From positions 6,900,001 through 6,932,000 of the forward strand of contig NZ_CP042911.1 of assembly GCF_008065095.1 (NCBI RefSeq): DNA of 32,000 bases, read 5' to 3'. Below are positions 23,831 to 29,653 of the stretch, piece after piece (position 1 is the stretch's first letter; the number at the start of each line of letters is the position of its first letter). Source of the stretch: Gemmata obscuriglobus (GTDB lineage Bacteria > Planctomycetota > Planctomycetia > Gemmatales > Gemmataceae). The notes below the pieces were generated by a model. The model ran no database searches. It was given only the letters and a program-made list of their open reading frames with translations, and was not told the origin of the DNA. The position numbers and the translations under genes are program-made.

Positions 23831-23874
23831 CCGCGTGGCCGATCCGTCGGCGGGCGCATAAGTCAGATTCGTCT

Positions 23875-24042
23875 CGACAGGTTCGTGCCGGCGTGCGGCG
23901 CGACGAAAAGGGAAGCCGGTGCGATTCCGGCGCAGGGCCGCTGCTGTGTTCGGCCAGGGTTCGGGCACCCGCCACTGTGATTCGTCATGGGAAGGCCGCC
24001 CGCTGCCCGCTACGAGCCGTAAGCCAGAAGACCTGCCTGTCG
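23875..24042 (+). promoter_or_regulatory. Cobalamin (B12) riboswitch aptamer
   Basis: P1 pairs gacagg (23876-23881) with cctgtc (24036-24041). The conserved core is aaagggaagccggtgcgattccggcgc (~23907-23933). The invariant GCCACTG is at 23971-23977. The B12 box is agccagaagacctgcc (24022-24037). It lies directly upstream of a co-directional three-gene operon, with a ~130-nt expression platform before the aaggag SD (24162-24167). Confidence 0.85.
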
Positions 24043-24173
24043 TTCACCCGTTCGGTGCCTCGGAACCAGGCGACCGGCCGACAGGCGCTCCGTGCGCGTG
24101 CGCACCCGTTTGTCCGCTTTGGCCCCCTCCGCAGGCACCCGGTTCGCCCGTCCCGGCGAACAAGGAGCCGTGC

Positions 24174-24716
24174 GTGTCTATCGACTACCCGTCCCGTTTG
24201 CCGCGTGTTCTTCTGCTGATGTCGCTGGTTGCGGCCGCGGCCCTTGTACGCCAGCTTCCGCACCCGCAGAACTTCACGCCGGTCGGGGCTCTGGCGATCT
24301 TCGCCGGGGCGTGCTTTGCCGACCGGCGGCTCGCGGTTCTGGTTCCACTCGCCGCTTTGGTTCCCGGCGACCTCACTGCCGGGATGCACGTGCTCGTGCC
24401 GGCCGTGTACGGGAGCCTCGCGCTGAACGTGTTACTGGCACGCCGGCTCCGGCTCCGGCGGACGGCGGCCTCGACCGCGGCGGTCACGCTCCTCGGGGCG
24501 GTCCAGTTTTTCGTCACCACCAACTTTGCCACCTGGCTGGTTTTTTACCCGCACACGCTCGGCGAGTTGGTGTCGTGCTACGTCGCCGCGGTCCCGTACT
24601 TCCGCAACACCCTGCTCGGGGACGCTACGTTCGTGGCGCTGCTTTTCGGCGCGCTGGCTCTGGCCGAGCGCGCGCTCCCGGCCGTCCGCGAGCCCGTGCC
24701 CGCGGCGGCGAACTGA
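24174..24716 (+). CDS. Small polytopic membrane protein (~180 aa, about 6 TM helices); putative vitamin or corrinoid transporter component (DUF6580/ECF-S-like from memory)
   Basis: The GTG at 24174 lies 6 nt after aaggag. The product is almost entirely hydrophobic helices (VLLLMSLVAAAALV, NFTPVGALAIFAGACF, LAVLVPLAALVPGDL, VLVPAVYGSLALNVLLA, AAVTLLGAVQFFVTTNFATWL, TFVALLFGALALA). The ORF-track start at 23919 would read through the riboswitch and is rejected. The family assignment is recollection only. Confidence 0.7.
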   Translation: MSIDYPSRLPRVLLLMSLVAAAALVRQLPHPQNFTPVGALAIFAGACFADRRLAVLVPLAALVPGDLTAGMHVLVPAVYGSLALNVLLARRLRLRRTAASTAAVTLLGAVQFFVTTNFATWLVFYPHTLGELVSCYVAAVPYFRNTLLGDATFVALLFGALALAERALPAVREPVPAAAN

Positions 24717-24727
24717 CGGAGGCGGTC

Positions 24728-25675
24728 GTGCGAATCGTGTCCCTGCTCCCCAGCGCCACCGAGATCGTTTGCGAACTCGGGCTCGGCGATGCGCTCGTGG
24801 GGGTGACTCATGAGTGCGACTATCCGGCGTTCGTGACCGCGCTTCCCAAAGTGACCCGCACGCTGATCCCGCACGATGCCATCAGCCGTGAGATCGACGC
24901 CCTGGTGCGCGAGCGACTGCAAACGCAACGGGCGCTCTACACACTTGACCTGCCGACGCTGGAGCGTTTGGAGCCGGATTTGATTGTGACCCAGGCGCTG
25001 TGCGACGTGTGCGCGGTGGCCGAAGCCGAGGTGACCGCGGCGGCCTGTACGCTGCCCGGCCGGCCGCGGGTCGTGAACCTCGAACCGACCTCGTTGGGGG
25101 ACGTGTTCGACACGTTGCACTTGGTCGCCGACGCGGCGGGCGTGCCCGCACGGGCGGACCTCGCCGTGGCCGCGCTGCGTGAACGGATCGGGACGGTCGC
25201 TAAGCGTTCGGAGCAGGTGACCGCTCGCCCCCGGGTGGTCGTGTTGGAATGGCTCGACCCGCCGTTCAGTTGCGGGCACTGGACCCCGGAACTGGTTCGA
25301 CTGGCCGGGGGCGACGAGGTGCTCGGCGTGTCCGGCGGGCCGTCGCGCACGCTCGCCTGGGCGGACGTAGTCGCGGCGCGGCCGGACGTGCTATTGGTTG
25401 CGTGCTGTGGCTTCTCGCTGGAGCGGACGCTCGTCGATCTTCCGGCGCTCCGGGACTGCCCGGGATGGGAGGCGCTTCCGGCGGTTCGTTCCGGGCGAGT
25501 GTACGTCACCGACGGTAATGCGTACTTCAGTCGGCCCGGGCCGCGCCTCGTGGACAGCGCCGAGATCGTCGCTCACGCGCTCCACCCGGCCCTTCACCCG
25601 CTCCCGCCGGGACTGCCCACCGCCCGACGGCTGACGCGCGAAGAGATCGGGAACGCGCGGCCGGTGACCGTATGA
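24728..25675 (+). CDS. BtuF-like (Peripla_BP_2 / class III) cobalamin or siderophore-type binding protein without a signal peptide
   Basis: The GTG at 24728 lies 5 nt after ggagg (24718-24722). The product begins directly with the first beta-strand, RIVSLLPSATEIVCELGLGDALVGVTHECDYP. Further family-typical segments are LEPDLIVTQ, VVVLEWLDPPFSCGHWTPELV, PDVLLVACCGF, VRSGRVYVTDGNAYFSRPGPR. The long upstream ORF part (24092-24727) is an Arg-rich out-of-frame overlap of the membrane gene. Confidence 0.8.
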   Translation: MRIVSLLPSATEIVCELGLGDALVGVTHECDYPAFVTALPKVTRTLIPHDAISREIDALVRERLQTQRALYTLDLPTLERLEPDLIVTQALCDVCAVAEAEVTAAACTLPGRPRVVNLEPTSLGDVFDTLHLVADAAGVPARADLAVAALRERIGTVAKRSEQVTARPRVVVLEWLDPPFSCGHWTPELVRLAGGDEVLGVSGGPSRTLAWADVVAARPDVLLVACCGFSLERTLVDLPALRDCPGWEALPAVRSGRVYVTDGNAYFSRPGPRLVDSAEIVAHALHPALHPLPPGLPTARRLTREEIGNARPVTV

Positions 25676-26355
25676 GGCCGAAGGTGCTGCTGTCGTGGAG
25701 TTCGGGCAAGGACTCCGCCTGGGCGTTGCACGTTCTGCGACAGCGCGGTGAGGTAGAGATTGTTGGGCTGGTGACCACCCTGAACGAGGCGTTCGGGCGG
25801 GTCGCGATGCACGGCGTTCGGGCCGAACTGGTCCGCGCGCAGGCCGAGGCCGCCGGGTTGCCACTGTGGGCGGTCCCGTTGCCGTGGCCGTGCTCGAACG
25901 ACCAGTACGAGAGCCGGATGCGCGGGCTCGTAGAACGGGCGAGAGCCGCGGGCGTCAGCGGGCTCGCGTTCGGTGACCTGTTCCTGGCCGATGTCCGCGC
26001 CTACCGCGAGCGGCAGTTGGCCGGGTCCGGGATTGAGCCGCTGTTCCCGCTGTGGGGTTCTCCGGCGGACACGCCCGCGCTGGCGCGGGAGATGATCGGC
26101 GCAGGGCTCCGGGCTACGCTGTCGTGCGTCGATCCGAAGCAACTCACCCGGCAGTTGGTCGGTCGGGAGTTCGACGCGCGGCTTTTGGCCGAACTGACGC
26201 CGGGCGCCGATCCGTGTGGGGAGAACGGTGAGTTTCACACCTTCTGTTACGCCGGCCCGATGTTCGATCGGCCGATCCCGATGCGGGTCGGCGACACGAT
26301 CGAACGGGACGGGTTCTGCTTCGCGGACCTGCTGCCGGGCGCCGCACCAGAGTGA
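25672..26355 (+). CDS. PP-loop ATP pyrophosphatase of the Dph6/MJ0570 (DUF71) adenine-nucleotide alpha-hydrolase family
   Basis: 227-aa ORF whose ATG overlaps the preceding stop (ATGA). The PP-loop is LLSWSSGKDSAWAL. A C-terminal segment typical for this family is GENGEFHTFCYAGPMF. Confidence 0.75.
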   Translation: MRPKVLLSWSSGKDSAWALHVLRQRGEVEIVGLVTTLNEAFGRVAMHGVRAELVRAQAEAAGLPLWAVPLPWPCSNDQYESRMRGLVERARAAGVSGLAFGDLFLADVRAYRERQLAGSGIEPLFPLWGSPADTPALAREMIGAGLRATLSCVDPKQLTRQLVGREFDARLLAELTPGADPCGENGEFHTFCYAGPMFDRPIPMRVGDTIERDGFCFADLLPGAAPE

Positions 26356-26471
26356 ACCGCCACATTTGCAGATGTTGCGGGTGGCACGTTCCAGGCGACC
26401 CCGTTCACTTTTCGGAACAACGATTCGCACCGGAAACGCGGGAGGCTCGGTTCGCGCGCCCGTGGGGCCGT

Positions 26472-27934
26472 GGGTGCCCCTCTGGATTTTGGCCCGTTAT
26501 TGGTTTTCCCAAAACCCCTTCCACTCCGGCCCCGCTGCTAATGCCCCCAGTTCGACAAACGGTGCCACATGCCCCAGATTCCATCTCGCCCCAGTTTGTT
26601 TCATTCTGATGTTGAGCAATTGCTTAACCGTTCCCTCCACCAACCCGCTTCCAATCGACTGCCCCCGCCGCAAACGCACCGCATAATTCAACCGCCCCTG
26701 TTGGCCACAAAAGTAATTCAATACGCCGCCCAAGGCGGCTCCGTCGCCTCCGGCGGGCATCTGCCCGGTCAGTTCTCCGATCCAGTCCACCAACCCGGGA
26801 TATCCGTCTTCCAGCAGCTTCGACTTGCCCCGGACAAACGCCGTCGCGGCTTGGACCCCGGGACCGAACACCGCCTTCGCCCCGCTGGCGAGGTACTCCG
26901 CCCCATGCCAGAAGTCGAGGACCTGGGTCGCGTCACGGAAGTGCTGCTCGGACACGTTCCACAACCACTCGGCCCCATCCCCCAGTACCGTCATTTGGCT
27001 CGAATCGGTCCACTCCAGTCGCGTGGCCTCGTCGTGACACCGCTTCCCGAACAGGCTCGCCTCCTCCACGGCCGCGATCACCGACCGCGCCAACGGGGTT
27101 GGCAGGTCGCGTCCCTCCCAGTCCATCGCCGTGGTCGGCGCACTTCGCTCGCGCCGGGCAAAAACGGCCATCTTGAGATCCCGCCAACCGTCCTCCACAG
27201 TGTTGACCTTGCCCGCGTCGATGTGCAACTCGCTGTCCACCGGCCGCTCGGTCCTGGCCGCGGCTTGGGCTCGGGTGAAGACTTCAGCGGTCGAGCGGTG
27301 TTGCCGGGTGGCGGTGGCCTGGGCCGCCGTGGCGTGGCAGAGTTGCCGGATGGTGTTGTCGTCCAATTCCCAGCCGACCACCTCGGCCAGAGTCACTTCG
27401 GCTTTGGCGAAGGACTGTTGGACGCCCAGCAAGACGGCCATCCGACAGGCGCCCGGGGTGACGTAGCCGCTGAGGCCCAGCCCGCGATCGGCTCCGAACT
27501 CGCCTTGCCCGCAAGTGGGGCAGTGGAAATACCTCCGCTCCAGCTCAATCGGACCAACGGCGGTCACAACCGTTCGGGTGTGCGGTCCTTTGGAGCGCCC
27601 GGGGTGCGTCTTCGCGCAGGTGCGGGCGCGCCCCCTTTTTGCTCGTCCTTCTCGATCCGTGAACCCAAGGCGGCACCGAGTGTGGTCCGCAACAGTTTGC
27701 GCCCTTGATCGAGTGCATGCTTCTCGCAGGCGGCCAGGACCGTGCCGTCGGGAGCTTCTTGGGCCAGACGATTCAGGTCCGTGAAATAGCCCAGCAGTTG
27801 TTCCAAGGCCAACCGTTCGGATTCGGTACTGTATTCTATAGTCAGCGTCGGCATCAGTATCCCTCCCAGATTGCCACGGCTTCCCCAGCCGGCTCCCATA
27901 CCGTTCACAAATGCCAAAATCCAGAGGGGCACCC
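26472..27934. mobile_element. Complete 1463-bp insertion sequence (ISKra4-like family, tentative) with 22-bp perfect TIRs and a 9-bp target-site duplication
   Basis: Left end gggtgcccctctggattttggc (26472-26493) is the exact reverse complement of the right end (27913-27934). The direct repeat tggggccgt flanks the element at 26463-26471 and 27935-27943. It encodes one transposase on the minus strand. Confidence 0.9.
26497..27854 (-). pseudogene. IS transposase (ISKra4-like), split over two frames by a -1 frameshift
   Basis: The N-terminal ~75-95 aa are [24 protein letters not shown]...IEKDEQKGG (ATG at 27854, gggaggg SD, this frame stops at 27564). The rest, ...GPIELERRYFHCPTCGQGEFGADRGLG... 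through a DDE-type body, is in the -1 frame down to 26497. The frames overlap around a homopolymer run A5G5 (C5T5 on the plus strand, 27631-27640). Confidence 0.75.
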
Positions 27935-28018
27935 TGGGGCCGTTCCGCTGATTGTTCCCGTCCCGGCGGGCGATATACTGATAGTTTGGTACCGTCGCAC
28001 TCCAGGAACCGTTGCTCG

Positions 28019-29653
28019 ATGACCAAACACATCTTCGTGACCGGGGGCGTCGTAAGCTCACTCGGGAAGGGTTTAACATCGGCATCGATCGGCCTCTTGT
28101 TGGAGGAACGCGGATTGCGGGTGCGGCTTCAGAAGCTCGATCCGTATTTGAACGTGGATCCCGGTACGATGTCGCCGTACCAGCACGGCGAGGTGTACGT
28201 GCTCGACGACGGCACCGAGACCGATCTCGACCTGGGGCACTACGAGCGGTTCACCCACGCCACCCTGAACAAAGACTGTAACTACACCACCGGCAAGATC
28301 TACCTCTCGGTGATCGAAAAGGAACGCCGCGGCGACTACAAGGGCAAAACGGTTCAGGTGATCCCGCACGTCACGGACGAGATCAAGTCCTGCATCCGGA
28401 AGATGGTCGCGCCGGACGTTGATGTGGTCATCACGGAGATCGGCGGGACCGTCGGCGACATTGAGGGCATGCCCTACTTCGAGGCGATCCGGCAGTTCGC
28501 GCTGGACGTCGGCAAGCACAACTGCCTGTTCGTCCACCTCACACTCGTCCCGTATTTGAAAGCGGCGGGTGAACTGAAGACCAAGCCGACGCAGCGCAGC
28601 GTCCGCGACCTGCGCGAGATCGGCATCCAGCCCGACATCCTGATCTGCCGCACCGAGCGCGACATTCCGAAGGACGAGTGCGAGAAGATCGCGCTGTTCT
28701 GCAACGTCGAGCGCAATGCGGTGATCGAGGAGAAGGACAAGGAATTCAGCATCTACGAGGTGCCGCTGAGCCTCGCCGACAACAAGCTCGACGAGTTGGT
28801 GGTGGAAAAGCTCGCGCTGACTCAGGCGAGGCCGCTGGACATGAGCGCCTGGCGGACGATGCTCGACCGGATGCGCGCACCGGCCCACGAGGTAACCATC
28901 GGGTTCGTGGGTAAGTATGTGAAGCACCGCGACGCGTACAAGAGCGTGTACGAGTCGATCGACCACGCCGGCATTGCCAACAACGCGAAGGTGCGGGTGG
29001 TCCGGATCGAGTCCGACAAACTCGCCGAAGAGGGCGCGGCCCAGGCGCTCGCGGGCGTCGACGGGCTGCTCGTCCCCGGCGGGTTCGACAAGCGCGGGAT
29101 CGAGGGCAAGATCGATGCCATCCGGTTCGCGCGCGAGACGGGGCTGCCGTTCTTCGGCATTTGCCTCGGGCTCCAGTGCGCGACGATCGAGTTCGCGCGG
29201 AATGTGGCGGGCCTGGATGGGGCCAACAGCACCGAGTTCGATAAGGTGTCGCCGCATCCCGTGGTGTGCCTGCTCGAGGAACAGGTGAACGTCACGAACT
29301 TGGGCGGGACGCAGCGCCTGGGCGCGTACCCCTGCCACCTAGTGCCCGGCACGAAGGCGCGCGCCGCGTACGGCGTGGACGTGGTTAGCGAGCGGCACCG
29401 GCACCGGTACGAGGTCAACAACGCCTACCGCGAAAAGCTCTCCGCCGCCGGGTTGGTGTTCTCGGGCACGAGCCCGTCCGGCGATCTGGTAGAGGCGATC
29501 GAACTACCGAACCACCCGTGGTTCGTGGCCGTGCAGGCGCACCCGGAGTTCCTCTCCAAGCCGACCAAATCGCACCCACTGTTCCGCGACTTCGTCGGCG
29601 CCAGTTTGGCCCGCCGGCTCGGTAAGAAGCCCGTCGCGGTGGTTATGAAATAG
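28019..29653 (+). CDS. pyrG: CTP synthase
   Basis: The start [59 protein letters not shown] and the glutaminase-domain motifs GICLGLQ and HRHRYEVN identify it. The ATG at 28019 is used; the ORF-track start at 27911 lies inside the IS end. Confidence 0.95.

Follow-up and report, generated by a model that had tools for sequence, protein, structure and literature searches.

The window analyzed here, the whole 32,000-nucleotide (nt) stretch at positions 6,900,001 to 6,932,000 of Gemmata obscuriglobus contig NZ_CP042911.1 (assembly GCF_008065095.1), harbored a three-gene operon led by a cobalamin (B12) riboswitch. The operon encoded a DUF6580 membrane protein, a leaderless BtuF-like class III binding protein, and a PP-loop ATP pyrophosphatase of the DUF71 family, and it fairly probably constituted a B12-repressed unit for uptake and cytoplasmic processing in a B12-dependent, non-synthesizing Gemmata.

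Riboswitch-led operon and B12 economy of the host

The operon and its flanking signals were composed of the following features, all on the + strand:
23863..24054: full-length cobalamin riboswitch aptamer (RF00174; cmscan 101.4 bits, E = 1.7e-24, model positions 1-189)
24055..24173: leader and expression platform (AAGGAG Shine-Dalgarno sequence at 24162-24167, read from the sequence)
24174 (GTG)..24716: DUF6580 membrane protein, 180 amino acids (aa) (PF20221, 164 bits; AAGGAG 6 nt upstream)
24728 (GTG)..25675: leaderless BtuF-like class III binding protein, 315 aa (PF01497, 62 bits)
25672 (ATG)..26355: PP-loop ATP pyrophosphatase of the DUF71-B12 subgroup, 227 aa (PF01902, 90 bits)
26464..26489: terminator-like hairpin plus T-run, 109 nt past the DUF71 stop (pattern scan; such sites were no commoner than in shuffled sequences), a possible end of the operon

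The earlier note, made from the letters of the window alone, had proposed a B12 riboswitch ahead of three tightly packed genes belonging to PF20221, PF01497, and PF01902, with no BtuCD or BtuB companion. The RF00174 element stood well above the gathering score of 31.5 bits over the full-length model and was recovered again in the whole-genome search; it held the GCCACUG core and the B12 box AGCCAGAAGACCUGCC as quoted, while its true start lay 12 nt before the 23875 first given. The packing was confirmed from the sequence, with an 11-nt spacer (containing GGAGG) between the DUF6580 and BtuF-like genes and an ATGA overlap between the BtuF-like and DUF71 genes, and all three Pfam families were matched. 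BtuCD and BtuB genes were likewise missing from the window, as the flanking genes bore out; across the genome, FecCD gave just two weak matches (34 and 32 bits), and the one examined looked like a Mn/Zn-type permease with a cation-diffusion-facilitator gene close by. No intrinsic terminator was detected in the leader by pattern scan, the leader fold energy was about that of shuffled sequences (z = -1.07), and terminator and promoter scans gave nothing above background; the riboswitch would act by translational control of the operon.

The host genome was a complete single contig of 9.0 Mb (67% G+C, 99.5% complete), and all three operon proteins shared 95-97% identity with their Gemmata algarum JC673 counterparts. 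No CbiB, CobS, CobU, or CbiZ was found in this complete genome, and a PduO-type adenosyltransferase was present together with proteins having a B12-binding domain, one of them a MetH-sized open frame of 1204 aa. By its gene content, the host appears to need B12, to be unable to make it, and to be unable to rebuild the nucleotide loop. Similar profiles were obtained for other carriers, in co-occurrence counts that included metagenome-assembled genomes (MAGs) of unknown completeness and related genomes rather than independent samples: (i) among the 46 genomes with DUF6580+DUF71 loci, CbiB was found in 3 and CobS in 4, and the MetH activation domain, serving as positive control for B12 use and assembly completeness, was found in 41; and (ii) among the 33 DUF71-positive Planctomycetota genomes (at least 90% complete), CbiB was found in 2. 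The DUF6580+DUF71 carriers would generally be B12-dependent auxotrophs unable to rebuild the nucleotide loop.

Four B12 riboswitches were present genome-wide: that of the operon, two before DUF1559 pseudopilin-like genes, and one before class I nrdAB. The last, at C1:1970388-1970597 (- strand), preceded nrdA-nrdB, with the region extending downstream to about 1966285. A riboswitch in this position usually serves to repress the isozyme that does not depend on B12, and a B12-dependent ribonucleotide reductase was therefore implied in this genome. The two others, of the uptake type (C1:1322683-1323832, L003, and C1:1324193-1325410, L002), each led a DUF1559/N_methyl pseudopilin-like gene. The orthologous DUF1559 gene was located inside the operon in relatives, between the riboswitch and DUF6580 (L007:2319-3434, L059:244-1385, L079:422-1776, and L080:800-2004), and the order in Pirellulales was riboswitch–DUF1559–DUF4465(BtuJ)–(DUF71)–DUF6580. 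From these placements, a DUF1559 subfamily specific to B12 may take part in outer capture.

Conservation of the module and the DUF6580 importer candidate

A scan of 185,579 species-representative genomes, one per species, gave at least 593 DUF6580 relatives, and the best 80 of these loci, taken with 3.5-kb flanks, were counted for the following contents:
DUF71 within 3.5 kb: 46 of 80 loci
Leaderless BtuF-like gene (at least 40% identity): 30 of 80
DUF71 and BtuF-like gene both: 26 of 80
RF00174 anywhere in the locus: 43 of 80
RF00174 upstream on the same strand: 36 of 80
TonB-dependent receptor: 22 of 80
DUF4465 (BtuJ): 7 of 80
DUF1559: 6 of 80
At least one of four B12 markers (riboswitch, DUF71, BtuF-like gene, TonB-dependent receptor): 69 of 80
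FecCD/BtuC cluster: 0 of 80

DUF4465 in this list is the experimentally characterized B12 binder BtuJ (PMC13616437). The triplet proved to be conserved behind B12 riboswitches elsewhere: the order riboswitch–DUF6580–BtuF-like–DUF71 was shared by Gemmataceae and by contigs labelled Pirellula, Blastopirellula, Zixibacteria, Armatimonadota, and Acidobacteriota. A second order, DUF71–DUF6580–BtuF-like, was found in Acidobacteriota, Alpha- and Gammaproteobacteria, and Verrucomicrobiota, and in the sampled planctomycete genomes with both DUF71 and DUF6580, these two were always adjacent. The operon was also considered as a B12-independent bypass (e.g., queuine salvage avoiding the B12-dependent QueG); this was rejected, the module recurring with BtuB-type receptors, BtuJ/DUF4465, and BtuR.

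The AlphaFold2 (AF2) model of the DUF6580 protein, built on 84 sequences, displayed six helices at a predicted local distance difference test score (pLDDT) of 94.4 and a predicted template modeling score (pTM) of 0.88. Its sole coherent Foldseek matches were S-components of energy-coupling factor (ECF) transporters: TmRibU (template modeling score [TM] 0.57-0.62, probability 0.99), ThiT (TM 0.57-0.58), and further FolT and 5EDL, with an overall TM of 0.53-0.62. Homologues were named "DUF6580 family putative transport protein" or "ECF transporter S component" in the databases, and no paper was found by full-text literature search for DUF6580. Invariant residues included H30 and N33 (in the PHPxNF loop after helix 1), Y79, F112, N117, and W121, and C135 was nearly invariant. 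On its predicted fold and the B12 contexts of its loci, the DUF6580 protein is a candidate inner-membrane corrinoid importer; import of cobalt, cobinamide, or the lower base was rejected because the host is unable to use any of these for B12. A second DUF6580 paralogue of the genome (C1:950453-951121, 106 bits) contained neither the PHPxNF motif nor a riboswitch and probably has a different substrate; it was followed by a YciI-like gene (region C1:950453-951408).

The DUF6580 protein was compared with two known B12 importers. The precedent for a small B12 transporter resembling S-components is BtuM of Thiobacillus denitrificans (PDB 6FFV; Rempel et al. 2018, PMC6072759). Its gene accompanies btuB and btuR in bacteria that have no BtuCD, and "metabolic trapping" through the enzyme encoded alongside has been proposed (PMC6072759). 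BtuM and DUF6580 were both small (~20-kDa), six-helix, and S-component-like, both were encoded in B12 contexts, often with BtuB, where BtuCD was missing, and each had a neighboring cytoplasmic ATP-using B12 enzyme as a potential vitamin trap (BtuR for BtuM and DUF71 for DUF6580). They had, however, no detectable sequence similarity, and BtuM was outside the top Foldseek matches; the conserved motifs differed (PHPxNF plus C135 in DUF6580 and Cys80 in BtuM), and BtuM hosts contained no ECF module, while an EcfT-EcfA pair was present in the window's genome. ECF-CbrT, an ECF-type B12 importer (PMC5997447), shared with DUF6580 the S-component fold for B12 uptake and possibly the use of a shared EcfT-EcfA; it belonged to a separate Pfam family, and about half of the DUF6580-carrying genomes showed no EcfT.

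The EcfT-EcfA pair of the host, at C1:6333838-6335387, was composed of an orphan CbiQ/EcfT-like gene and then a CbiO/EcfA-type ATPase gene (VFQNPDDQLF motif), with no S-component or CbiM/N adjacent, and it could be a shared ECF energizing module. The importer had been proposed as a solitary ECF-S/BtuM-like protein; the S-component-like fold and the B12 contexts lacking BtuCD upheld this in part, while "solitary" was not established because of the orphan pair. DUF6580 might thus be an ordinary S-component that needs the shared EcfT-EcfA in the manner of ECF-CbrT, with no BtuM-like facilitator acting alone. This is a genuine possibility, although distinctly short of probable: the predicted fold, the orphan pair, and the presence of EcfT in all 12 Gemmataceae-type genomes carrying the operon are in its favor, but CbiQ/CbiO may equally belong to Co/Ni transporters, and EcfT was found in 22 and not found in 24 of the 46 DUF6580+DUF71 genomes, against 41 for the MetH control, so an ECF module cannot be a general requirement of the DUF6580 family.

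Several further arrangements were observed across the loci. Four contigs labelled Alcaligenaceae, Microthrixaceae, or Bifidobacteriaceae (L012, L015, L019, and L043) carried operon proteins that shared 60-77% identity with Gemmataceae or Verrucomicrobia proteins; these contigs were probably mis-binned in MAGs, and the phylum counts are therefore approximate. Two planctomycete genomes, L089 (G090:C8) and L091 (G121:C1), had the arrangement DUF71–DUF6580–DUF71 with two flanking DUF71 paralogues, while the Gemmata operon had one DUF71 copy. In DUF6580-less planctomycetes (L097:4833-7835 and L101:4878-7921), DUF71 was divergent to a conserved gene pair encoding a ~450-aa protein without Pfam match and a fused ATP-binding cassette (ABC) ATPase–MlaE-like permease; no riboswitch was found at these two DUF71 loci in the nhmmer scan, and the pair may be another transporter partner.

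Around the operon in the window, the upstream neighbors were a KdsB-like cytidylyltransferase gene and MacB-type ABC genes, and the downstream neighbors were a convergent UPF0236/insertion sequence (IS)-type transposase gene and then pyrG (about 28017-29653). The transposase-like open reading frame (511 aa, 26497-28032, - strand) began ~140 nt past the DUF71 stop; it separates the operon from pyrG and may have been inserted there recently.

DUF71-B12 enzyme and BtuF-like protein

The DUF71 family was split by de Crécy-Lagard, Forouhar, Brochier-Armanet, Tong, and Hunt (2012, Biol Direct 7:32) into Dph6 and "DUF71-B12", the latter being defined by ENGEF/YH in place of the Dph6 EGGE/DxE; DUF71-B12 genes adjoined B12 transporter genes in 75/102 cases and cbiB in 18/102, were strictly anticorrelated with CbiZ in bacteria, and occurred in 3/6 Planctomycetes genomes, and a CbiZ-like role in pseudo-B12 salvage was proposed for them (PMC3541065). 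The DUF71 protein of the window, encoded by the only DUF71 gene in its genome, harbored an SSGKDS PP-loop at residues 10-15 and the sequence GENGEFHTF, which contains the ENGEFH signature of this subgroup, and it scored 61.7 against the TIGR03679 (Dph6) cut-off of 197.3; by these sequence marks it is assigned to DUF71-B12. It had been taken for an enzyme class with no known role in B12 metabolism, which did not hold, since a B12-salvage role was already predicted in 2012 (PMC3541065) and the ENGEFH motif matches. Literature search on DUF71-B12 gave only the 2012 paper and one review, and no later experimental work was found. The window protein and the published subgroup (PMC3541065) shared the PF01902 fold, the PP-loop, ENGEF/YH, the bacterial occurrence, and the clustering with B12 uptake genes, but the partners in 2012 were BtuCDF and CbiB, while those here were DUF6580 and the leaderless BtuF-like protein.

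The 2012 proposal would make DUF71-B12 a functional CbiZ analogue, which converts cobamides such as pseudo-B12 to adenosylcobyric acid by opening them, or reaches that compound by another entry, with CbiB and CobS then rebuilding cobalamin with the preferred lower ligand. The published adjacency to transporter genes and cbiB and the CbiZ anticorrelation fit this proposal (PMC3541065), as do the planctomycete locus G039, with cbiB ~2 kb from DUF71, and the window's genome, in which CbiZ was not found. CbiB, CobS, and CobU were absent from that 99.5%-complete genome as well, so cobyric acid would lead nowhere in the host, and the rarity of CbiB and CobS in the carriers counted above (with MetH in most of them) means that CbiZ-like remodeling does not fit the DUF6580+DUF71 module; for this module it is very improbable. 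On the same gene content, DUF71-B12 would have to accept and return a complete cobamide.

Dph6, a diphthine-ammonia ligase (PDB 3RJZ family), and the DUF71 protein had a common fold and ATP-pyrophosphatase core but differed in the substrate-side residues, the Dph6 catalytic Glu being replaced by His. In the Dph6 reaction, a carboxylate is adenylated before being amidated, and the reaction proposed below takes this chemistry as its precedent; to our knowledge, diphthamide is absent from bacteria.

The BtuF-like gene was the only Peripla_BP_2 gene in the genome. The absence of a signal peptide, expected from the window, was upheld by homologous loci, which were needed to exclude a longer N-terminus because the reading frame upstream of the start was open in the window. 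In 12 homologous loci (L006, L007, L008, L009, L012, L013, L018, L023, L024, L027, L045, and L078), an in-frame stop closed the frame 1-7 codons ahead of the conserved start (MRIVS or M-x3-RIVS), the start there being ATG with a GGAG-type Shine-Dalgarno sequence. In addition, the 120 closest database homologues were almost all 305-316 aa long, and the AF2 model (pLDDT 92.5) placed the first beta-strand at residues 3-5. The family thus carries no Sec, Tat, or lipoprotein signal.

The BtuF-like fold was that of tetrapyrrole-binding class III binding proteins, and the top Foldseek matches were RhuT, Vibrio cholerae BtuF, ShuT, and PhuT, also Escherichia coli BtuF (these matches, 5YSC and 1N4A included, having E = 1e-15 to 1e-11 and TM 0.78-0.83 normalized to the target). 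The class III helical-backbone fold was shared with BtuF (E. coli 1N4A and V. cholerae 5YSC) and with the heme binders RhuT, ShuT, and PhuT, and the GHW motif was common to the BtuF-like protein and V. cholerae BtuF. Compared to BtuF, the BtuF-like protein had no signal peptide and no BtuCD partner, contained an insertion of ~26 residues relative to canonical members, and displayed an invariant His/Cys cluster: H28-E-C30 (THECDYP), C92-x-x-C95, G183-H184-W185, and C227 were invariant, and the family contained five to nine cysteines, several of them invariant. NCBI named its homologues "cobalamin-binding protein", and the score against the BtuF equivalog NF002894 was 34.2 bits with a cut-off of 234. 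We take SSYSDYP of the E. coli BtuF structure to align with THECDYP, and its Tyr to contact B12; on this alignment, H28 and C30 would lie within the ligand cleft.

Two other roles were weighed for this protein. It may be a cytoplasmic metal/heme binder or redox partner that serves DUF71 and binds no corrinoid: H28-x-C30, C92-x-x-C95, and C227 resemble a metal or cluster site, the heme binder RhuT was the best match in both Foldseek and phmmer, the BtuF equivalog score was far below its cut-off, and relatives were fused to small Cys-rich domains (CWC/DUF5522) and to DUF362. This role is unlikely, given that the family was always located in B12 riboswitch operons, that GHW recurs in V. cholerae BtuF, that H28 and C30 flank the position presumed to contact B12, and that BtuM offers a precedent for cobalt being ligated by cysteine (PMC6072759). 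The second role would be export by a non-classical route, with the protein feeding DUF6580 from outside the membrane. Class III binding proteins normally work outside the cytoplasm, and the BtuF-like gene directly followed that of the membrane protein; however, the upstream stops in many loci exclude the Sec, Tat, and lipoprotein signals, a cysteine content with several invariant positions is typical of a reducing compartment, and ECF S-components bind their substrate directly, with no use of binding proteins. Export is hardly to be expected.

Fusions of the two cytoplasmic proteins were also recorded. DUF5522 (Cys-rich, with CWC) was fused to the leaderless BtuF-like protein in one gammaproteobacterial MAG (L036:4055-5275) and to DUF71 in two further proteins (among P0177, P0240, and P0354), a common fusion partner that links BtuF-like and DUF71 proteins; one BtuF-like homologue was fused to DUF362. 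A stand-alone DUF5522 copy at C1:260149-260304 (- strand) had no B12 context. Among fusions of DUF71 or the BtuF-like protein that might reveal the reaction (e.g., with a glutamine amidotransferase), only those with DUF5522/CWC and the one with DUF362 were found.

Proposed route and its meaning

The operon, read as a B12 uptake and processing unit, would work in three steps: (i) DUF6580, standing in for BtuCD, would bring complete cobamides through the cytoplasmic membrane, either alone like BtuM or docked to the orphan EcfT-EcfA; (ii) the leaderless Cys/His-rich BtuF-like protein would take the corrinoid at the cytoplasmic face, acting both as a sink that gives direction to a possibly non-energized carrier and as a substrate holder that presents the cobamide; and (iii) DUF71-B12, if it works like Dph6 and other PP-loop enzymes, would adenylate a carboxylate of the complete, protein-bound cobamide at the expense of ATP, the likeliest outcome being that a deamidated side chain is repaired by amidation ahead of PduO adenosylation and use.

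The re-amidation of a deamidated cobamide side chain by DUF71-B12, already suggested in the earlier note, is put forward tentatively, as a possibility well below an even chance. It would be the simplest chemistry because deamidated side chains are the sole carboxylates in a complete cobamide, and it gains plausibility because the window's genome and ~93% of the module genomes were without CbiB and CobS. We know of no enzyme that re-amidates deamidated cobamides. The full proposal is a new three-part route for B12 auxotrophs, with DUF6580 as a new and widespread cobamide importer family of the inner membrane, His/Cys cobalt ligation by the BtuF-like protein pulling the vitamin off the transporter, and DUF71-B12 as a repair ligase that re-amidates scavenged monocarboxylic-acid cobamides with ATP; taken as a whole, it is speculative and rather unlikely to hold in every part.

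The following points weigh against the uptake and processing reading: (i) the three genes were separable, every pair being found without the third (DUF71 without BtuF-like in ~20 loci and BtuF-like without DUF71 in 3-4), so a fixed three-protein relay is not required, and the genes are modules of one regulon, not an obligate complex; (ii) the co-occurrence counts are affected by incomplete and mis-binned MAGs; (iii) the Foldseek E-values for DUF6580 were weak (0.4-3), and phmmer and profile searches against PDB chains, BtuM included, gave no match at E <= 10; (iv) the BtuF-like fold resembles both heme binders and BtuF, and the ligand of its Cys/His cluster could be a metal rather than a corrinoid; and (v) the carboxylate/amidation chemistry of DUF71-B12 is drawn only from the PP-loop and the Dph6 precedent, and the Dph6 catalytic Glu is a His here.

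As to what was known before, DUF71-B12 was already predicted in print, and DUF6580 and the "cobalamin-binding protein" were unpublished but annotated in databases; the new constraint is that DUF71-B12 works in cells without nucleotide-loop assembly. DUF71-B12 has been a named "missing function" since 2012, and its occurrence in mostly CbiB/CobS-less hosts removes the leading hypothesis and narrows the substrate to complete cobamides. BtuCDF is present in only about half of B12-auxotrophic bacteria (PMC6072759). Passage of B12 across the inner membrane in the remaining auxotrophs is largely unexplained, and DUF6580, with at least 593 relatives mostly in B12 contexts, is a strong candidate for part of this gap. 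Gemmata is a cultured genus, and these predictions are thus testable in a real organism.

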